From a virus, in the IMG/VR virus record IMGVR_UViG_3300029915_000016, positions 1 to 64,000 of that record: a stretch of DNA of 64,000 bases. One strand, written 5' to 3'. Within the stretch, counting starts at the first letter, position 1. Every line of letters begins with the position of its first letter. The notes under the pieces were generated by a model. That model saw nothing but the letters and a program-made list of their open reading frames with translations. It did no database searches and was not told the origin of the DNA. Positions 4,321 through 61,835 of this stretch are shown piece after piece. The position numbers and the translations under genes are program-made.

Positions 4321-6441
4321 GTGCCTATCGTAACGGATGGTTCGTCTTCGCGTAATGCATTATTAGAGAACGTGTCGTGGCAATCTCCGCCTTTTTCCGC
4401 TCCTCCTGATCGTATTGTCAGTTGGGTTGAGGATCAAGTCTCGGAGGGTGAAGGTTTTCTCCAAAACCAAACATGCTACCAGAATCTCGGTAGCAATATG
4501 CGTATATTTGACGGCATATTTAAGGATAAATCTAAATCAACGCTTGTCACAAATCGCTTAAAATACAACATTAGAAAATTCTGTGAAACGCTGGCTGAGG
4601 TTAGAGAGATTGCCGGTTTCGGATCGGACATACCTGCCTACAAACAGTTTGCAGAGATGCTTACAAAGGTTTCAAAGTGTGTCTATCTAGAGTCCGATTT
4701 TCCATTCCAAATGCTGAAAGTTTTGCAGTATGCCTCCGTCATGGGGATAGGATACTTGTGGCCTAAAGTTCGGGCTACAGAGTACGGATATGGCGAGAGA
4801 AAGCTAATGTTCGATGCGCTAGGACTCTTGGATGTGGTTCCTGTCCAGATGTCAAATAGCCACGACATTCAAGACTGCTACGCGGTGACGGTGTACAACT
4901 ATATGCCTATCGCAGAGGCGCATGGTAGGTTTCCTTTATTCCAACACCTATTGCAGACGGTTGGGCCTCGTAACTATAAAACTCAGTTGCAGGCAAAGAG
5001 GATTGATTGGGCTGAGAAGTATAGATATGGAGATCAAGGACGCAGTTTTGGAAACCTATATACCGAGATTCGTTATACGTTTGTTAGGGATTTGAGAATC
5101 AACAACACAGGTTTTGAGTTGCCAATGGGAGACTTGGGAACGACGTGGTTTTACAAAGTTCCCTATGTCGGACAGGATATATTTGGAGGAATCAGGAATG
5201 GTCAGCCTTTCATGCGTCCTGCTCAAGTGGAGGATTGCCGGGTGTACCCTAACCTGCGGCTCATCATTACATCTTCAGGACTCAACCGCCCGATGTATGA
5301 CGGTCCTGCCTTCGATTGGGATAGTAATATACCGATTATCCAGTACACGGTAGATGATTGGGCATGGGAGCCTCTAGGACGGTCCTTGGTTGGCGATGTG
5401 GCCTCAATAGAAATGACTAAGAGAAAGCTGGAACGTCAACTAGATCAGGTAGTTACAGCAAGTTTGAATCCTCCGATGGGATACAATATTGACGAGAATT
5501 CAGGGGCAAAGGTGGAGCATTTCGACATCTTTGAACCTGATGTTCGCATGGGACTGGCAGGTGGTGAACCACAGAAGATGCTTCAGTCTCTACTCCCTGA
5601 CTCGGTAAGGGCAGATACGGTTCACTTCACGATGCTGAAGTATCTGGACGAGTGTGAACAGATGCAGCTTGGACTCACGGATCTAGGCAACCTTCAGAAT
5701 ATGAAGATGAACATTGCCAACGAGACGGCAGACAAGATGCTGGAGGGTATTGGTCCTATCGGAAAGGGTATCGCGGCTAGGATTGAAAAGGGAAACAAGA
5801 GGGTAGGAGAACGCATGAAGTTCTTAATCCCTCAGTGGTTCAACGTAAAACGGATTATGGAGTATGTAGGACCGGATGGGATGGCACGGGAGACATTCGA
5901 CTACGATCCTGACTCTCTAGTTCCCAGTCACATGCCCGATGAGATGATAAAAGGGAATTTCCCGGATACGGAATCTAAGTACGATCAGTTGACACGCGCA
6001 CGCTGGTTTGCGCGGCAGATCAGGCTCACATCTGTTCCTAGCACATTGTTGAAGATCACTCAGATGCAACAACAGATGCAAGCGTTGCAACTGAAGCGAT
6101 CCGGGGCTCCAATCTCATGGCAAACGTGCTTTGAACGTATGGATTTTCCTGACCCTAAGGGAGAGATTCAAAAGAGTTTCAAGGAAGAAGTTGAACTCCA
6201 AAAAATGAAGATTTTGGCTCAAATCGAAGTAATGAAGATCATGAAAGAGCTAGGAATTGATCCGTCTCAATTGCCGGGTGGAGAGGATCAAGGTAAGGGT
6301 GGTAAAGGTGGTGGAGGCGGAGGTAAAGGGGCGGGTGGACAACATGCAGGTGGGCGTCCCCCGAGCGGACAAAAACCACCACGATTGGCTTCTAAGGGTT
6401 CCCAAGGTGGTGATCCAAGAACGGTAGTCAAGGAGAGTTGA
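4321..6441 (+). CDS. portal protein
   Basis: 706 aa between terminase and scaffold/capsid; helical Gln/Met-rich then Gly-rich C-terminus as in P22-like portals; assignment mainly positional. Confidence 0.75.
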   Translation: MPIVTDGSSSRNALLENVSWQSPPFSAPPDRIVSWVEDQVSEGEGFLQNQTCYQNLGSNMRIFDGIFKDKSKSTLVTNRLKYNIRKFCETLAEVREIAGFGSDIPAYKQFAEMLTKVSKCVYLESDFPFQMLKVLQYASVMGIGYLWPKVRATEYGYGERKLMFDALGLLDVVPVQMSNSHDIQDCYAVTVYNYMPIAEAHGRFPLFQHLLQTVGPRNYKTQLQAKRIDWAEKYRYGDQGRSFGNLYTEIRYTFVRDLRINNTGFELPMGDLGTTWFYKVPYVGQDIFGGIRNGQPFMRPAQVEDCRVYPNLRLIITSSGLNRPMYDGPAFDWDSNIPIIQYTVDDWAWEPLGRSLVGDVASIEMTKRKLERQLDQVVTASLNPPMGYNIDENSGAKVEHFDIFEPDVRMGLAGGEPQKMLQSLLPDSVRADTVHFTMLKYLDECEQMQLGLTDLGNLQNMKMNIANETADKMLEGIGPIGKGIAARIEKGNKRVGERMKFLIPQWFNVKRIMEYVGPDGMARETFDYDPDSLVPSHMPDEMIKGNFPDTESKYDQLTRARWFARQIRLTSVPSTLLKITQMQQQMQALQLKRSGAPISWQTCFERMDFPDPKGEIQKSFKEEVELQKMKILAQIEVMKIMKELGIDPSQLPGGEDQGKGGKGGGGGGKGAGGQHAGGRPPSGQKPPRLASKGSQGGDPRTVVKES

Positions 6442-24638: not shown

Positions 24639-27600
24639 ATGGCTCTGAAATTCATAGGCGTCGATCTTACAAGTCCCCTCAACAGAATTCCTGCTGGTAG
24701 GACGAGTATAGCTCAAAATATCCGCGCTTATGCGCTTGGAGGAATATCTTTTCGTAATCTTCTCACGGCAGCGATAGAAACCCTTGGAGCAGCCGTTCAT
24801 TCCCTAGCCAGGCTCAACGATTCTACCCCAAACGGACCTGTTTCAGGATACATAATCATTGGTGGAGCAGGAACAACTCTCTATGCAGGTTCTACAGCAA
24901 TAGCAACCAGCATGAGCGGTCATCCTCTATCGATGATTACATTTCGGCCTAATGCATCAGTTCAGCCATGGATGTATATTGGAGATTCTGCCCCTGCAAA
25001 CACAGTAACTCTTCTCACAAAGTATCTTGGAGCTAACAGTTTTGGACCAGCAGGAACGCCTGTAAACTTTGTATCTAATGGATTAATGAAAGTTCGGTCG
25101 GATGGAATTGTTTACAAGACAGGTATCCGCGAGCCTCAACTTGCCCCTCTAGTCTCTACCGGAAATATTGTCACGAGCGCGACAGCAGTACCGCTTTCGG
25201 CAAAAACTATTCCGTGGACAAATGTTGGCGGGGCTAACTCGACAAATTACTCATACAATCAGACAAACCCATCAGACGGAACCCCTCCTTTTATTATCAC
25301 TGGCGGAGGACCAGAGTTGGTTGCCGGATCAACTATACTTTTATCAGTAATAGCATCTCTGATAACCCCTCCAGTAGTGAACGGATCGGCACCCGGAGTA
25401 AGTCCAGCAACACCTGGACCAACCGCAGGTTCACCGGGTCAGTTTGTCACATTCCCTACTCCGGGGTCGAGTTCGATCATAGTCGGAGCGTTTACTGATT
25501 CTAGCGGAAATATCATCGCTCCGGGTGGACTGATTCCCATCGTCTTTTCAATTGGCACAGGAACATCTGTTACAGTTCCTACTGGTGCCTCACAATTGCA
25601 TGTGGGGATCAACTCGGTAGGATCAACGCCGTTAGGTTTTTCGTTCAATAATAACAGTGGAGACTTTCTTCTCGATTGGACGGTCACGATCAATCCTATT
25701 GCGGCGAACGTTGCCACGGTTGGGGACGTAACGGCTTATGTATGGGGATCTGTACCGGGAGGAATTGGTACAGGCGGAGGATCTCCACACTCGGGACCAG
25801 TGGCTCAATACATCTGGAAGAACCCTGCTGATGGAGGTTCTGGCATTGTTCGAGGAATAACCAATCCAGTCCCCGACGTATCACCGACAAGCAATTCGTG
25901 GATATTTGACTCTACCCCTGAGAACGACACACTGCCTGTAAATTGGAGTGTATTGAATCCAGACGGTTCGGTTGCAAGCACGATCCCGCTTTTCACTCCC
26001 GCGCTGGAGCCGGAAGGAAACTATGCCGACTTCAATGTGTGCGTAGTTGGTAGCCTCTTCATTCCAGCGGCAGGGACGCACACATTCACGATTCAATACA
26101 AAGATCAGATAATGTTCGGCATCGGTGGAGGGGCAACGCTTGTAGGGTCGTTCTCCAGCGGTCTTTTACGCGGCCAAACAATGACTGTAGTTCAAGCTCT
26201 GCCGCTTCTTTTTGGCGGAGTTATTGACGGTTCAGGATCGTTCCACACAGCAACTATCACAGTATCCTTTCCCGGTACTGGTCTGTACGACGTAGAGATT
26301 GACTGGGATTACTGGTCCCACACTGGAAGGTCTCTCATTCTGACTTGCGATGGAGTTGTAATTCCTCCAATCTCTTCTAATATCCGCCAGAATGTTCAAT
26401 ACCGATATGTGTACCGTAGCACAGCTACAGGAGCATTATCGAATCCATCTCCCGAATCAACAGCGCAATCTCTTCCGGTCATCGCAAATTCTGTATCATC
26501 TATATGGTCGAATGACCCGCAGGTTGATGTAGTTGACTATTATCGACTTGATGAAAACACCACCAATTTCACTTATGTAGCAACAGGACCAAACGATAAT
26601 CTTGGACCGGGTGGTACTAATACGCCGATTGTTGATCTGTTGACGGATTTGGAACTAGGAAACCAGTTGCTAGACTTTGACAACTTTGAGCCATTTCCAT
26701 CTATAGATTTGCCTCAAAAGGGAACGGTTAGCATCTCTGGTGGAGTTATAACTTGGTTGACGGGTGGAGCGATTGGAGGGACTACTACTGGATTTAATGT
26801 ACGTTGGTTGGCTGGTACGATAATCCTTATAGGATCACCAACATCACTGGCTTACATCCTCGTTGCAAGACCAACATCTACCACAAGCATGACGATTCCC
26901 GGAGTTCCAGATGGAACCAATTTATCATATGAGATTCCAGAGCCTATCCTAGCCAATCAACCTCTGCCATATCAGTTTGGACCGACAGATAATATCAACT
27001 TCACTTTTGCGGTAGGAGACCCATTAAGGCCGGGGACTCTCTACTGGTGCAAAGGGTCTAATCTTGATTCCGCACCCGACACAAATCAATTAGAGGTAAC
27101 CGATCCCGGAGAGACGTTAGTCAATGGTGCCATGAGCGGTGGACGGGGAGTTTTAGCGTCGATCAAGAGATTTTGGGTTATCATGCCTAACTTCTTTGAT
27201 TTGACATCGACGGTAACAGGGACTCAAGGATCGACATGGACGCTACAAGAAACCAGCATTAATCGTGGTTTGTATATGCCACGGTGCTTGGCGGTTGAAG
27301 GAGGAGGAACGATATTTTTCAGAGTGTCTGACGGTATCCACGCATCACCGGGAGGAGCCGCTTCGGTTTCCATTACCGATCAGGATTTGTATCCTTTATT
27401 TAGTCACGAGAACGCAGACTCAGCGCCTAGTGTTCCTCAACCGATAACAAGGAATGGAGTAACCGTTTATCCACCAGACGACTCACAGCCACAAGGACAA
27501 AGATTCTCTGTAGTAAACGGTTTCCTTTACTATGATTACTTGGACGCCACCAGTACGCCAAGGACTCTAGTCTACGACATTAAGAATCACGGATGGGTAT

Positions 27601-28076
27601 GGGATGTATATCAATTCCCTGCCACAATCCATGCATCAAGTGAGGGTTTAAGCCAACAAGGAACTCTGGTAGGATGCGCTGATGGGTCAGTACGTCAGAT
27701 GGCGAGCGCAGGAATAGAAACAGGAACATCTATTGTTATGACTCCAGCGATAGGAGGAAAAGAATGGCAGCATTTGTATGAAGTAACGGTTGAATATGTG
27801 TCATCTAATCCAATCACGTTATCTTTTGTTGTGTCTGACACAGGAAACGGAAGCTATGGTCCACCGAATATAATCCTTCCAAGTTCGGGTGGAACTTTAA
27901 CGAAATTCAACACCAAAGCTGGCGCTAACAAGTGGAAGTTGATGGCATTCCAATTCTCTTCTACGGATCAATTTCAATTAAATATGCAGGGAACCACCTT
28001 CGAGGTAAAGGAGTGGGGTAGTAACGCGGAATATCGTTTAGTGAATCCGTTTGGCGACAGTGGGGGTGAGGGATAA
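24639..28076 (+). CDS. probable tail nozzle/stabilisation protein with PA14-like insertion
   Basis: 1145 aa, beta-rich; GSLFIPAAGTHTFTI...GLYDVEIDW resembles PA14. Confidence 0.55.
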   Translation: MALKFIGVDLTSPLNRIPAGRTSIAQNIRAYALGGISFRNLLTAAIETLGAAVHSLARLNDSTPNGPVSGYIIIGGAGTTLYAGSTAIATSMSGHPLSMITFRPNASVQPWMYIGDSAPANTVTLLTKYLGANSFGPAGTPVNFVSNGLMKVRSDGIVYKTGIREPQLAPLVSTGNIVTSATAVPLSAKTIPWTNVGGANSTNYSYNQTNPSDGTPPFIITGGGPELVAGSTILLSVIASLITPPVVNGSAPGVSPATPGPTAGSPGQFVTFPTPGSSSIIVGAFTDSSGNIIAPGGLIPIVFSIGTGTSVTVPTGASQLHVGINSVGSTPLGFSFNNNSGDFLLDWTVTINPIAANVATVGDVTAYVWGSVPGGIGTGGGSPHSGPVAQYIWKNPADGGSGIVRGITNPVPDVSPTSNSWIFDSTPENDTLPVNWSVLNPDGSVASTIPLFTPALEPEGNYADFNVCVVGSLFIPAAGTHTFTIQYKDQIMFGIGGGATLVGSFSSGLLRGQTMTVVQALPLLFGGVIDGSGSFHTATITVSFPGTGLYDVEIDWDYWSHTGRSLILTCDGVVIPPISSNIRQNVQYRYVYRSTATGALSNPSPESTAQSLPVIANSVSSIWSNDPQVDVVDYYRLDENTTNFTYVATGPNDNLGPGGTNTPIVDLLTDLELGNQLLDFDNFEPFPSIDLPQKGTVSISGGVITWLTGGAIGGTTTGFNVRWLAGTIILIGSPTSLAYILVARPTSTTSMTIPGVPDGTNLSYEIPEPILANQPLPYQFGPTDNINFTFAVGDPLRPGTLYWCKGSNLDSAPDTNQLEVTDPGETLVNGAMSGGRGVLASIKRFWVIMPNFFDLTSTVTGTQGSTWTLQETSINRGLYMPRCLAVEGGGTIFFRVSDGIHASPGGAASVSITDQDLYPLFSHENADSAPSVPQPITRNGVTVYPPDDSQPQGQRFSVVNGFLYYDYLDATSTPRTLVYDIKNHGWVWDVYQFPATIHASSEGLSQQGTLVGCADGSVRQMASAGIETGTSIVMTPAIGGKEWQHLYEVTVEYVSSNPITLSFVVSDTGNGSYGPPNIILPSSGGTLTKFNTKAGANKWKLMAFQFSSTDQFQLNMQGTTFEVKEWGSNAEYRLVNPFGDSGGEG

Positions 28077-51118: not shown

Positions 51119-51196
51119 CGCGGGGTGGACTGGAGACGGTTCCAGCTTGGTCTCATAAGCCAAATCACGTCGGTTCGATTCCGATTCCCGCAACCA
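51119..51196 (+). tRNA. trnfM: initiator-type tRNA-Met(CAT)
   Basis: CGCGGGG start with C1:A72 mismatch; CT-CAT-AA; own TTGACA at 51084. Confidence 0.85.
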
Positions 51197-55655: not shown

Positions 55656-55730
55656 GGGCCAGTAGCATAGATGTAATGCGTCACCCCTGCAAGGTGAAGT
55701 TCGAGGACTCAAGCCCCTCCTGGTCCACCA
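55656..55730 (+). tRNA. trnA: tRNA-Ala(TGC), C33
   Basis: G3:U70; TCACC-CC-TGC-AA-GGTGA. Confidence 0.85.
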
Positions 55731-55992: not shown

Positions 55993-56238
55993 ATGAGGGA
56001 TATAACAATACAGGAAGCATCCGAGTGTATCAAGAGAACGCTACCGCGCTGCACGCCTGATATTTGGTTTCTCACGCGCTTCAAGGATTACGTGAATAAC
56101 AACACAGAAGTTGACGATATGGAGGAAGATGAATTTTTCGATAGTTTTCTTCCTTGCGCTTTGTGGGCTTTCACTGAAGCGATGTACAGCACGATTATGC
56201 CAGTTACTAGGTTTGGCGAATGTGCGCCTCTAGCTTAA
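55993..56238 (+). CDS. small acidic hypothetical protein
   Basis: AGGAG RBS; 3' end overlaps tRNA-Arg. Confidence 0.55.
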   Translation: MRDITIQEASECIKRTLPRCTPDIWFLTRFKDYVNNNTEVDDMEEDEFFDSFLPCALWAFTEAMYSTIMPVTRFGECAPLA

Positions 56239-56299
56239 TGGAAAGAGCGGCACTCTACGAAAGTGTCAGGTTCCCGTTCAAGTCGGGAGGGGCGTACCA
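56224..56299 (+). tRNA. trnR: tRNA-Arg(ACG)
   Basis: GCACT-CT-ACG-AA-AGTGT; ACCA. Confidence 0.9.
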
Positions 56300-56630: not shown

Positions 56631-56760
56631 TGCACGAGCCGTCCGAATTTCGTTATCCTCCGCCAAACTGGGGGCGTAGCTTAATGGCTAAAGCGCCAGA
56701 GTAATCTGGATATTGGGTTCGAGTCCCACGTCAACGCGAAGTTCAATTTTTGTTCGTGCA
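56631..56760 (+). ncRNA. Y RNA-like 2 (non-permuted tRNA module)
   Basis: GAGCCG/TTTGTTC stem enclosing D arm, GTAA-capped stem and T arm. Confidence 0.75.
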
Positions 56761-59557: not shown

Positions 59558-59881
59558 ATGTATATCGTAGCTCTAATCTGGATGCACTTTGTATCTGATT
59601 TCGTCCTACAATCGGACAAGATGGCGATCAATAAGTCAAAGGATAACCGTTGGCTCTTCTTTCACTGCCTTGTGTACTCTACACCATTCTTTGTCTTTGG
59701 ATGGAAGTTTGGATGCGTCACACTCCTATTCCATTTCGTGACAGACTACTTCACATCTCGTGGAACGTCCTACTTGTGGAAGAAAGAGATGCGCCACTGG
59801 TTCTTCACTTTAATCGGCTTCGATCAAGCGATCCATCTGACGACATTATTTTTCACGTACCGATTTTTATGCTTGCGTTAG
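59558..59881 (+). CDS. DUF3307-like membrane protein
   Basis: HFVSDFVLQ...H...H...D...GFDQAIH. Confidence 0.8.
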   Translation: MYIVALIWMHFVSDFVLQSDKMAINKSKDNRWLFFHCLVYSTPFFVFGWKFGCVTLLFHFVTDYFTSRGTSYLWKKEMRHWFFTLIGFDQAIHLTTLFFTYRFLCLR

Positions 59882-59901
59882 GACTCGAAGTGGTGTACAT
59901 T
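59873..59901 (+). promoter_or_regulatory. putative promoter of tRNA operon C
   Basis: TTGCGT-17 nt-TACATT. Confidence 0.5.
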
Positions 59902-59949
59902 GATTTTACACCGCAGAAGATCGTGCAGTCGCAGTCGGAAGGATTGAAT

Positions 59950-60024
59950 ATGCAGATCAGGACCAAATCCGTGAGATCCATAACCATGACCGGGAAGCGG
60001 GTCATTTGGGGAACTTGCGTATGA
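59950..60024 (+). CDS. leader peptide 3 (Ile/Arg/Thr/Lys/Val/Met/Gly/Trp sensor) of tRNA operon C
   Basis: GGAAGGA RBS; MQIRTKSVRSITMTGKRVIWGTCV; codons match the downstream tRNAs. Confidence 0.8.
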   Translation: MQIRTKSVRSITMTGKRVIWGTCV

Positions 60025-60049
60025 GGGTCTGAGTGCATTTGTGGTACAC

Positions 60050-60080
60050 AGACCTTCGCCTAGAGCGAGGGTTTTTTGTT
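60050..60080 (+). terminator. attenuator terminator of tRNA operon C
   Basis: ACCTTCGC-CTAGA-GCGAGGGT followed by TTTTTGTT. Confidence 0.8.
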
Positions 60081-60096
60081 GGAGTTCTTTGACAAT

Positions 60097-60170
60097 AGGG
60101 GATTAGTCTAATGGCAAAACGTCTGCCTCCAGAGCAGAATTTACGGGTTCGAGTCCTGTATCCCCTGCCA
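60097..60170 (+). tRNA. trnW: tRNA-Trp(CCA)
   Basis: TCTGC-CT-CCA-GA-GCAGA; GCCA. Confidence 0.9.
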
Positions 60171-60175
60171 GATTT

Positions 60176-60244
60176 GGCACGTATCCAAGGCGGAAAGCGG
60201 CTCTCATAAAGCCGTAAACTGGTTCGAGTCCAGACGTGCTACCA
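60176..60244 (+). tRNA. tRNA-Met or Ile2 (CAT), reduced D arm
   Basis: CGGCT-CT-CAT-AA-AGCCG; ACCA; 69 nt. Confidence 0.75.
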
Positions 60245-60305
60245 AGTTCACGGCGGTTTAAACCTAAACCGATGGCGCAACACCATCCTGCCGTGATTAG
60301 TTTTT

Positions 60306-60383
60306 GGGGGTGTAGCTAGTGTTGGCACCAGCAGTCTCCTTATAAGAGACCGTCCGAAGGTTCGATTCCTTCCACCCCTACCA
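60306..60383 (+). tRNA. trnI: tRNA-Ile(TAT)
   Basis: GTCTC-CT-TAT-AA-GAGAC; ACCA. Confidence 0.85.
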
Positions 60384-60387
60384 TAGT

Positions 60388-60474
60388 GGGACTGTGGCCT
60401 AGTCAGGTTTTGGGCACCCGGCTCTTACCCGGCGCGGAAACGCAACGTAGGTTCAAATCCTACCAGTCCCACCA
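60388..60474 (+). tRNA. trnK: tRNA-Lys(CTT) with long variable arm
   Basis: CCGG-CT-CTT-AC-CCGG; GCG-GAAA-CGC arm. Confidence 0.8.
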
Positions 60475-60485
60475 ACACTTTTAAC

Positions 60486-60561
60486 GGGTTTGTCCTCCAA
60501 CGTCTAGGAAACTCGCCTTTTAAGCGAAGCAATGTGGGTTAGAGTCCCACCAAACCCACCA
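60486..60561 (+). tRNA. trnK: tRNA-Lys(TTT)
   Basis: TCGC-CT-TTT-AA-GCGA; ACCA. Confidence 0.85.
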
Positions 60562-60562
60562 T

Positions 60563-60640
60563 GCACTCGTACCGGCCTCGCCTTCTAAGCGAGTTCACCG
60601 TAACTGGAATATGCGAGTTCGACTCTCGCCGAGTGCCCCA
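60563..60640 (+). tRNA. trnR: tRNA-Arg(TCT) lacking a canonical D arm
   Basis: Perfect acceptor, anticodon and T stems; 7-nt connector in place of the D arm. Confidence 0.75.
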
Positions 60641-60645
60641 GTTTT

Positions 60646-60722
60646 GCCGCTGTATCTCCCCTGCCTCCTAAGCAGGTAAGAGTAAGTGGATGATGACGGT
60701 TCGAGTCCGTCCAGCGGTTCCA
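60646..60722 (+). tRNA. trnR: tRNA-Arg(CCT) lacking a canonical D arm
   Basis: CCTGC-CT-CCT-AA-GCAGG; same architecture as its neighbour. Confidence 0.75.
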
Positions 60723-60737
60723 TGAGGGAGAAGTGAA

Positions 60738-61013
60738 ATGCGAAAGTCATCATTAACCGATCCATTGACGGACGAGGAAGTAGACGCAGCAAACGCCGAT
60801 CCTAGCGACATGTGGATTCATGTGCGGTGCAAGGATTGTGGGGATGTTGAGTGTTGCTTCAACCGGACAGTAACGTCATGGCAACGTCGGTGTTTTCCTT
60901 GCCAGATGGGTTGGAAGCCGATGAAGAGCGTTAAGAAGATCGCAGAGGTCAACGGATTCAAGCCAGTTCCTATGCGACAACAGGAAGATACGTTTGATCG
61001 TGAAACACGATGA
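60738..61013 (+). CDS. Cys-rich hypothetical protein
   Basis: GGGAG RBS; CKDC...CFPC. Confidence 0.6.
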   Translation: MRKSSLTDPLTDEEVDAANADPSDMWIHVRCKDCGDVECCFNRTVTSWQRRCFPCQMGWKPMKSVKKIAEVNGFKPVPMRQQEDTFDRETR

Positions 61014-61020
61014 ACTTTTT

Positions 61021-61095
61021 GCAGGCGTGGTGAAACGGAGATCACAAAGCCCCCCGAAGGCTTAATTCTCGGTTCGAATCCGAGCGCTTGTACCA
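61021..61095 (+). tRNA. trnR: tRNA-Arg(CCG), C33
   Basis: AAGCC-CC-CCG-AA-GGCTT. Confidence 0.85.
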
Positions 61096-61103
61096 TAGTT
61101 TTT

Positions 61104-61178
61104 GCCCCGCTCGTCTAAAGGTAAAGACCGAAGTCCTACAAACTTCAGATCGGCGTTCAATTCGTCGGTGGGGCACCA
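61104..61178 (+). tRNA. trnV: tRNA-Val(TAC), C33
   Basis: GAAGT-CC-TAC-AA-ACTTC. Confidence 0.85.
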
Positions 61179-61257
61179 AGTTCGGAGTCTGAGGGTTGGT
61201 AGCCCTTGGAGGTTACAACGCACAGATCGAACACCTGTGACTCTGGGATGTGTAAAT

Positions 61258-61331
61258 GTCGATGTAGCACAGTGGCAGTGCCATTGCTCGGTAAGCAATA
61301 GACCCGCGTTCGATTCGCGGCATCGGCTCCA
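61258..61331 (+). tRNA. trnT: tRNA-Thr(GGT), C33
   Basis: ATTGC-TC-GGT-AA-GCAAT. Confidence 0.85.
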
Positions 61332-61332
61332 T

Positions 61333-61410
61333 GGCGGTCTAGCTCACATTGAGAAGAGCGTTCCCCTGATAAGGGAGAGGCACCCAGTTCAATTCTGGGG
61401 ACCGCCACCA
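61333..61410 (+). tRNA. trnI: tRNA-Ile(GAT)
   Basis: TTCCC-CT-GAT-AA-GGGAG. Confidence 0.9.
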
Positions 61411-61418
61411 TACGTTGT

Positions 61419-61502
61419 GCGGGTCTTGAGTAATTGGTTGCTCAGTGGTCCTCCAAACCACCGCCGTAAGGCATACGGGTTCGACCCCCGTGACCCGCTC
61501 CA
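61419..61502 (+). tRNA. trnG: tRNA-Gly(TCC), C33, long variable arm
   Basis: GTGGT-CC-TCC-AA-ACCAC; TCCA. Confidence 0.85.
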
Positions 61503-61505
61503 TCT

Positions 61506-61835
61506 CTAATTTAGAAAAACAGGATCAACTATATCTATTTTAGATTTAGGTTCCTGTATTTTTACCGGCTGAGGAATAATACCTTGAACTAGAACAAATA
61601 TTCCTCGAAATGTCTCTCTCGTCTCAGCGCACCGCATTCCGAAAAGCTCTTCGCCAAAGTAAACTCCTGCCATATTGGAACAATGCGGATAGGACGTGCT
61701 CACGGTGTATCCTTCTCCTTCTACCCAGTAGAGGGGTTGACCGTATTCTGCAAATTCCTTTTTGTCGATGGTCACTGCTATATATGTTTGTCGTGCATCA
61801 GATATACTTAAACCGAACGCTATTTCATTATTCAT
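61506..61835 (-). CDS. hypothetical protein
   Basis: GGAGG RBS. Confidence 0.65.
   Translation of the reverse strand: MNNEIAFGLSISDARQTYIAVTIDKKEFAEYGQPLYWVEGEGYTVSTSYPHCSNMAGVYFGEELFGMRCAETRETFRGIFVLVQGIIPQPVKIQEPKSKIDIVDPVFLN

Follow-up and report, generated by a model that had tools for sequence, protein, structure and literature searches.

Two adjacent genes in an uncultured phage from soil very probably encode functional elongator arginine transfer RNAs (tRNAs), with the anticodons UCU for AGA and CCU for AGG, whose chain is not ordered as a cloverleaf. The genes lie on the plus strand of IMG/VR virus record IMGVR_UViG_3300029915_000016, of which we analyzed the stretch from position 1 to 64,000 (64,000 nucleotides, called the window here; all coordinates are those of the window, and its features are on the plus strand). 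To our knowledge, the cloverleaf chain order has been taken as universal for tRNAs outside mitochondria. Judging from sequence comparison, genes of this layout, which we call rewired, form a large family left without a description in the literature searched: no account of the layout was found in full-text articles, a search that stopped short of subscription journals and supplements (for example the tRNA cluster figures of PMC5389517).

The first gene (60563..60640, gene 1) begins 1 base past a tRNA-Lys(TTT) gene and is followed head-to-tail, after 5 bases, by the second (60646..60722, gene 2). Both have standard acceptor, anticodon and T arms with a 7/5 acceptor/T split and an encoded CCA. 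Gene 1 has a 7-bp acceptor stem (60563-60569 with 60630-60636), a connector of 7 bases (60570-60576), an anticodon arm (60577..60593) with a covarying 5-bp stem (60577-60581/60589-60593) and a 7-base loop (60582-60588) that holds U33, the anticodon TCT (60584-60586) and A37, a region of 19 bases between the anticodon and T stems (60594-60612), a T arm (60613..60629) with a covarying 5-bp stem and a TTCGAnn loop, discriminator C73 at 60637 and CCA at 60638-60640. The corresponding parts of gene 2 are an acceptor stem whose first pair is G-U (60646-60652 with 60712-60718), a connector of 7 bases (60653-60659), an anticodon arm (60660..60676; stem 60660-60664/60672-60676, loop 60665-60671) with the anticodon CCT at 60667-60669 and, as in gene 1, U33 and A37, 18 bases between the anticodon and T stems (60677-60694), a T arm (60695..60711), discriminator U73 at 60719 and CCA at 60720-60722. 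A preliminary description of this DNA had reported an adjacent tRNA-Arg pair with intact acceptor, anticodon and T stems and CCA, and that much can be read directly from the sequence.

What sets the pair apart is the D domain. Neither gene has a D hairpin, the gap between the acceptor and anticodon stems being 7 bases; instead the string TAAnTGGA lies behind the anticodon arm, directly 3' of the triplet CCG in gene 1 and GAG in gene 2. Connector bases 4-6 are complementary to that triplet in each gene, pairing CGG (60573..60575) with CCG (60598..60600) in gene 1 and CTC (60656..60658) with GAG (60680..60682) in gene 2. On the covariation set out below, we assign these triplets as the 5' strand (the equivalent of positions 23-25) and the 3' strand (the equivalent of 10-12) of a rebuilt D stem. 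The first three connector bases of gene 1 (60570..60572) would then be U8-like, A9-like and one 22-like base, the last a C. Behind the second triplet, the segment 60601..60612 would supply the 13-, A14-, A15-, G18-, G19- and A20-like bases and, in its AT end, those like A21 and U48, an assignment based on family conservation, on covariation of the R15-like and Y48-like places and on the match of the string to cloverleaf Arg D loops. The segment at 60683..60694 in gene 2, likewise with an AT end, is assigned on the same three grounds. The pair had been described as being without a D arm; this is right for the hairpin, which gives way to a 7-base connector, and wrong for the stem, which appears to be formed anew by a nested helix of 3 bp that closes off the anticodon arm and has the D loop after it.

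We collected homologues in three samples. Sample 1, from viral contigs, used a pattern combining the D-loop-like motif with the T loop and gave at least 119 stretches, of which 48 genes were parsed, 47 of them distinct (one locus, L084, was dropped as a different RNA). Sample 2, also from viral contigs, used a pattern of G-TATC, 8 free bases, a TCT anticodon loop, 25-40 free bases and a T loop, leaving the region behind the anticodon arm unconstrained; its stretches, at least 120, held 102 distinct sequences, and 99 of these passed the stem tests while 3 failed. Sample 3 applied a motif pattern to one genome per prokaryote species and gave 88 stretches, 49 of which parsed as the rewired layout.

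The extra helix is supported by its covariation, tested with an anchor by position alone, bases 4-6 of the connector being set opposite the three that precede TAR..GG. Across sample 2, 296 of 297 cells were paired and 98 of 99 triplets were complete, in 12 triplet combinations. The mean of 10,000 shuffles was 191.7 and the maximum 223, with none reaching 296, and shifting the register gave at most 186 of 297. Although the pattern for this sample imposes C at connector base 4, the partner G, which it does not impose, was present in 99/99. Sample 1 gave 123 paired cells of 138, with full triplets in all 29 of its TCT and CCT genes. A MAFFT alignment of the 47 sample 1 sequences, not fitted to any structure, had 97.1% of the whole named structure paired; shuffling gave 61.3%, and sliding the partners gave no more than 45.4%. 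The acceptor, anticodon and T helices were 99.4%, 96.6% and 99.1% paired with compensatory changes, and the extra helix (12-14/43-45) was 89.4% paired with double changes at all three pairs; its middle pair was C-G in 18 sequences, U-A in 14, G-C in 12, A-U in 2 and something else in 1. The covariation that had been noticed between the two genes of the window thus extends across their homologues. By energy, the family structure lies 0.3-0.5 kcal/mol from the minimum free energy (MFE), with the 3-bp helix contributing 1.9 kcal/mol. A fourth pair, which would join base 3 of the connector to the T ahead of AA, was also considered and rejected: the combination is T-T in 122/132 genes and would be a non-standard pair.

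The layout behind the anticodon arm is conserved as a linker of 3-10 bases, the partner triplet, TAR, one or two bases, GG and A, and the connector begins with an invariant TA (46/46 in sample 1), its third base being T in 122/132. In both genes of the window, TAAnTGGA is followed by a run of 3-9 bases that adjoins the T stem and has AT as its last two, an ending shared by 92/99 genes of sample 2. GGA occurs in 98/99 genes of that sample, whose pattern does not impose the A after GG. When the cloverleaf tRNAs of the same loci were called with ARAGORN, an A followed the D-loop GG in 55 of 68 tRNA-Arg genes and in 145 of 1113 others, and the D-loop strings of the cloverleaf Arg genes were of the TAAnTGGA type, which agrees with the earlier suggestion that the motif is an Arg-type D loop carrying an A20-like base. 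For bacterial arginine identity, Table 1 of PMC9976931 gives A20 as the main determinant, with C35, U/G36 and A/G73 or U73. Genes 1 and 2 have C35 and U36 through their anticodons TCT and CCT, and both have an A directly 3' of GG, whose spatial place as A20 we infer. The R15-like and Y48-like places also vary together in the manner of a Levitt pair, being A-T in 128, G-C in 3 (from two lineages) and A-C in 1 of the 132 genes.

We also restored the cloverleaf order in silico and scored the result against a hidden Markov model (HMM) of 63 cloverleaf tRNA-Arg genes. Mean scores were 12.6 bits for the native order, 24.5 for the reordered one, 20.0 with the moved segment shuffled and 19.8 with it deleted; reordering raised the score above native in 129/131 genes and above the shuffled control in 124/131. 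Positions 10-21, that is, one strand and the loop, thus appear to have been moved behind the anticodon arm with the tRNA core kept: with U8, A9 and the 22-26-like, 10-21-like and Y48-like bases assigned, all conserved core elements would be present.

Cloverleaf Arg genes in the whole 82.6-kb contig have only the anticodons ACG and CCG, and the rewired pair completes the Arg set. AGA and AGG make up 350 (175 each) of the 907 arginine codons in the 51 long open reading frames (ORFs) of the contig, so the phage would need both tRNAs. A separate cloverleaf Arg gene shares the locus with 39 of the 146 distinct rewired genes, and in 35 of these cases the two forms differ in anticodon; none of 10 listed arrays has both forms for one anticodon. 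The clearest case is locus L263, a contig binned with a Candidatus Acidiferrales genome and colinear with the operon of the window: the order of 12 anticodons is identical, identity is 73% over 123 bases of the leader region and 84.7% over the CCT gene, and the downstream proteins are similar. On its minus strand, L263 has a cloverleaf TCT gene (RF00005 50.5 bits) and rewired CCT and CCG genes, whereas the window has rewired genes for TCT and CCT and a cloverleaf for CCG. Three further loci (L320, L273, L328) have a rewired TCT gene and a cloverleaf CCT gene. Rewired genes fill the anticodon gaps left by cloverleaf Arg genes. The genes concerned lie within L263:4445-4602 and 5062-5138 on the minus strand, the CCT and CCG genes being only 9 bases apart; the rewired CCG gene, which is outside the 132 genes counted above, has G at both the R15-like and the Y48-like place.

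The RNA that we propose would run from the acceptor 5' strand through U8-A9, the 22-25-like and 26-like bases, the anticodon arm, a short linker and the 10-12-like triplet to the 13-to-20/21-like TAAnTGGA...A, the U48-like base, the T arm and the acceptor 3' strand. Its 3-bp helix would stack on the anticodon stem in the fashion of a D stem. With GG docked on the T loop, U8 paired by the A14-like base and U48 by the A15-like base, the RNA would keep its L shape. Arginyl-tRNA synthetase (ArgRS) would recognize it by C35, U36 and, as A20, the A that follows GG, and RNase P, EF-Tu and the ribosome would meet a normal acceptor/T domain.

Standard tools overlook both genes. ARAGORN reported 30 tRNAs in the window, the same 30 as in the whole contig, and Rfam at gathering thresholds reported 25 in the window; genes 1 and 2 are in neither set. 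With permissive filters, gene 2 scored 33.3 bits against RF00005 (gathering threshold 29), its D arm being treated as 15 deleted model positions plus a 15-base insertion. Gene 1 gave no RF00005 match under the same filters; its best match was tRNA-Sec (26.3 bits, gathering 47), which, like a Plastid-ycf2 antisense match (23.4 bits, gathering 65.7), lies far below threshold and which we read as a partial match to ordinary stems. We built a covariance model, R1, from the 47 homologues; its scores put the match of the two genes beyond chance. On the window it scored gene 1 at 82.5 bits and gene 2 at 79.8, with the next match at 31.6; in the searches run, family members scored 48-86 bits and all else at most 38.4, cloverleaf tRNAs reaching at most 34.1. 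ARAGORN also missed tRNA-Lys(TTT) at 60486-60561 and two further Rfam tRNAs (55656-55727 and 56670-56736), and it called a 'tRNA-???' with a two-base anticodon at 51119-51196.

Several observations weigh against reading the pair as working tRNAs with a rebuilt D domain. RNAalifold, applied to the 47-sequence alignment, returned the three ordinary helices and did not recover the 3-bp helix, so the support for that helix is covariation and not energy; MFE structures of the single sequences favor a 2-bp alternative in gene 1 and a register shifted by one in gene 2. Full triplets occur in only 3 of the 16 ACG and TCG genes of sample 1, most having two C-G pairs and a C-A. The patterns for samples 1 and 3 impose TGGA and GTTCGA. 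The ARAGORN version of the reordering test was weak: ARAGORN called none of 131 genes in native order and 125 after reordering, but also 85 of the shuffled controls, and we relied on the HMM version for this reason. Discriminators C73 in gene 1, outside the Arg identity list, and U73 in gene 2, on the list, are not the usual A/G73; sample 2 has G in 53, A in 35, T in 10 and C in 1 of 99 genes, and C73 is also the rarest in sample 1, where the 1 case in 47 is gene 1 itself. At 4 of the 39 loci, all for TCT, a cloverleaf and a rewired gene stand together, and the two forms are accordingly not strictly exclusive. Charging and decoding by both genes are inferred from sequence, and the three-dimensional mapping is reasoned from canonical tRNA structure.

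Some of these points would suit a conserved tRNA-like RNA working outside translation, either a decoy or sponge for host nucleases or toxins that target tRNAs or a regulatory mimic of tRNA-Arg. Its unusual layout, the atypical discriminators of genes 1 and 2 and the four loci with both TCT forms are all compatible with such a role, and the part of PMC12475279 on phage T5 reports tRNAs that differ from those of the host mostly in or near the D loop, a difference linked to tRNA-targeting nucleases. Yet a decoy would have no need to complement cloverleaf Arg genes anticodon by anticodon, as at 35 of 39 loci and in all 10 arrays, or to exchange slots with them in a colinear operon, and it would be keeping the A20-like base, C35, U/G36, the encoded CCA and a normal acceptor/T domain needlessly. 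We consider this explanation improbable.

Still less likely, in our judgment, is that the genes encode tRNAs that simply lack the D arm, as in mitochondria, and that their long variable region is unstructured or folds into a hairpin, neither the 3-bp helix nor the 'D loop' having a structural part. This would account for the result of RNAalifold, and ARAGORN in mitochondrial mode does draw a variable-region hairpin in gene 1, formed by the linker with TGGA. That hairpin was rejected, however, being unconserved in the family alignment (47.5% of cells paired, equal to shuffles, and 0 double changes), whereas the triplet helix covaries almost perfectly and the motif is an Arg D-loop string. The same mode found 0 genes with a D-replacement loop, misfolded gene 1 into a Tyr(GTA) and did not report gene 2.

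Decay into tRNA pseudogenes would explain why standard finders miss the genes and why most database records leave them unannotated, but it is hard to credit when compensatory changes preserve all helices in a family of more than 130 distinct sequences, drawn from phages of Streptomyces, enterobacteria and Pseudomonas and from uncultured ones, and when the two genes of the window are tightly packed in an operon with CCA encoded as in their neighbors. The preliminary description had favored a rewired topology over decay, and the compensatory changes in all four helices, together with the filling of empty Arg slots, come down on the same side. Least credible of all is that the gene is scrambled and that cutting and religation of its transcript produce a normal cloverleaf, by analogy with permuted or split tRNA genes: in silico reordering does yield a called cloverleaf in most genes, and Streptomyces phage Yaboi, which also has rewired genes, encodes an RNA ligase and a polynucleotide kinase, but the arrangement is no circular permutation, the acceptor strands being in normal order so that two cuts and two joins would be required, the nested helix that covaries is formed by the RNA in its encoded order, and the known pathway, as the relevant part of PMC4033280 describes it, needs bulge-helix-bulge motifs and an archaeal/eukaryotic splicing endonuclease.

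The home of the family is phages and mobile tRNA arrays. A near-identity search of phage records with positions 60000-61600 gave no match. A sensitive DNA search found sequences like gene 2 in 7 Streptomyces phage records, unannotated or beneath a coding sequence, and at weak E-values in Felix O1-like phages, some of whose records label the gene 'tRNA-OTHER'. In Felix O1 itself (AF320576.1), a rewired TCT gene (L329:25951-26029) lies unannotated in the tRNA cluster, partly under 'ORF100'; the record has 22 annotated tRNAs, with a single Arg (codon CGU). This copy matched 263 phage records, and in 252 of these the match covered 80% or more of it; the records come from phages of hosts including Escherichia, Salmonella, Klebsiella, Serratia and Proteus and from some jumbo phages. 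Among the 60 matches listed of the 263, the annotation beneath was 'tRNA-OTHER' in 4, 'tRNA-Undet' in 1, 'tRNA-Val' in 1 and tRNA-Arg in 0. The gene annotated in Yaboi as tRNA-Val(aac) (NC_048730.1:86686-86764; L129:1501-1579) is a rewired tRNA-Arg(TCT) scoring 71.4 bits with R1, and its label looks like a mis-annotation by a finder forcing a cloverleaf. A 36-kb stretch of the same phage has annotated cloverleaf TCG and ACG genes and an unannotated rewired CCT gene, so that here too the two forms divide the Arg anticodons between them.

Prokaryote assemblies carry the closest relatives of the pair. Loci with at least 10 tRNA genes within at most 8 kb account for 26 of the 49 genes of sample 3, and many of these contigs have been placed in Acidobacteriota (Blastocatellia, Bryobacterales). 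The nearest copies of gene 1 (in loci L241 and L308, 81-83% identity) and of gene 2 (in L263) are all among these assembly members. A 1145-aa structural protein of the window (24639-28076) has 30.6% identity over 41% to three Tunturiibacter (Acidobacteriota) phages, its sole matches among phage records. Taken together, the acidobacterial relatives of the two genes and the protein match suggest that the host of the phage is probably an acidobacterium.

A strict scan for any anticodon across the 2.8 Mb of collected loci, which had been drawn with Arg-biased patterns, gave 112 distinct rewired genes, all with Arg anticodons. Two looser cases with the anticodon GAT (Ile) indicate that the layout is not strictly limited to Arg. 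One, unannotated in Yaboi (L133:543-619; NC_048730.1:74542-74618; R1 61.8 bits), has connector ACC pairing with GGT and a T instead of an A after GG; the second is in L071. Variants of the layout were also seen. A sub-family with an 8-base connector (loci L243, L309, L295, L318, L285, L294, L322 and L270, and L069:5442-5521) has connector bases 2-4 (AAC, AGC or AGT) covarying with the first three bases after GGA (GTT, GCT or ACT), which suggests a second short helix closing the D-loop-like segment. A contig assigned to Saccharofermentanales has three rewired genes in tandem at L292:1650-1926 (R1 59.5, 58.7 and 62.2 bits), and the family member in L114 seemingly has an 8-base anticodon loop around TCT, or else a bulged stem.

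Within the window, the pair belongs to a tRNA operon (60097..61502) that runs Trp, Met, Ile(TAT), Lys(CTT), Lys(TTT), the two rewired Arg genes, a 91-aa ORF, Arg(CCG), Val, Thr, Ile(GAT) and Gly. The ORF (60738-61013) is Cys-rich with CxxC pairs, stands between the rewired CCT gene and Arg(CCG), and is absent from that spot in L263. Upstream, a 24-codon ORF (59950..60024) contains AGG (59959-59961), AGA (59974-59976) and CGG; AGA and AGG codons had been noted earlier in a leader, and both are indeed present there. A terminator-like hairpin lies 5' of the operon at 60050-60074, and a promoter scan of 59700-61800 found 0 promoter-like sites.

If the pair does encode working tRNA-Arg, a chain of another topology, with half of the D arm behind the anticodon arm, is able to form the L-shaped core. 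The 'missing' AGA/AGG decoders of well-studied phages such as Felix O1 would be accounted for, mis-annotations such as the Yaboi tRNA-Val(aac) would be mended, and tRNA finders would gain a new model. The family would also be a natural test of which features of the tRNA core are read by ArgRS, RNase P, EF-Tu, modification enzymes and tRNA-targeting defense nucleases. A bolder proposal, which we regard as rather doubtful, is that these are natural non-cloverleaf elongator tRNAs on bacterial ribosomes, interchangeable by slot with cloverleaf genes, and that the rewiring is adaptive, hiding tRNA-Arg from tRNA-directed nucleases or modification enzymes, of the host or of a competitor, that recognize the D hairpin, yet leaving it acceptable to ArgRS, EF-Tu and the ribosome.

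Compared with canonical class I tRNA-Arg (RF00005; in the window Arg(ACG) at 56224-56299 and Arg(CCG) at 61021-61095), the rewired genes share the 7-bp acceptor stem, the 5-bp anticodon stem with a 7-base loop, the 5-bp T stem with its TTCGA loop and CCA, as well as U8, A9, the GGA D-loop string, C35 and the operon context. They differ in that the D-stem strands flank the anticodon arm, the D loop lies behind it and the D hairpin is absent, and in place of the 4-5-base variable loop there is a linker of 3-10 bases ahead of the triplet. In mitochondrial D-armless tRNAs, which work with mitochondrial factors, the D-loop elements (G18, G19) are gone. The rewired genes keep these elements, relocated downstream, which argues that they are not of the mitochondrial D-armless type, and their RNAs are presumably used on bacterial ribosomes. 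What the two kinds have in common is a short connector at the site of the D arm and an effectively extended anticodon helix, as portrayed for metazoan mt-tRNA-Ser(AGY) in parts of PMC4033280 and PMC9976931.

Permuted tRNA genes, described in a section of PMC4033280 for Cyanidioschyzon merolae, some green algae and Thermofilum pendens, likewise depart from the cloverleaf order of segments, the 3' half preceding the 5' half, but splicing via a circular intermediate makes the mature tRNA a normal cloverleaf. In the rewired genes, by contrast, both acceptor strands keep their normal order and it is an internal segment that has changed place; the covariation of the nested helix indicates an RNA that functions in the order encoded. 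An 8/4 or 9/3 acceptor/T split with a long D stem marks tRNA-Sec and the allo-tRNAs. Allo-tRNAs and other 8/4 or 9/3 tRNAs share the setting of the rewired genes: the portion of PMC5389517 that treats them places these tRNAs of non-standard architecture in bacterial and phage tRNA clusters, notably of Acidobacteria, where standard finders miss them. As described there, allo-tRNAs keep the cloverleaf and its D hairpin and alter the acceptor/T split, whereas the rewired genes have the usual 7/5 split and a rewired D domain.

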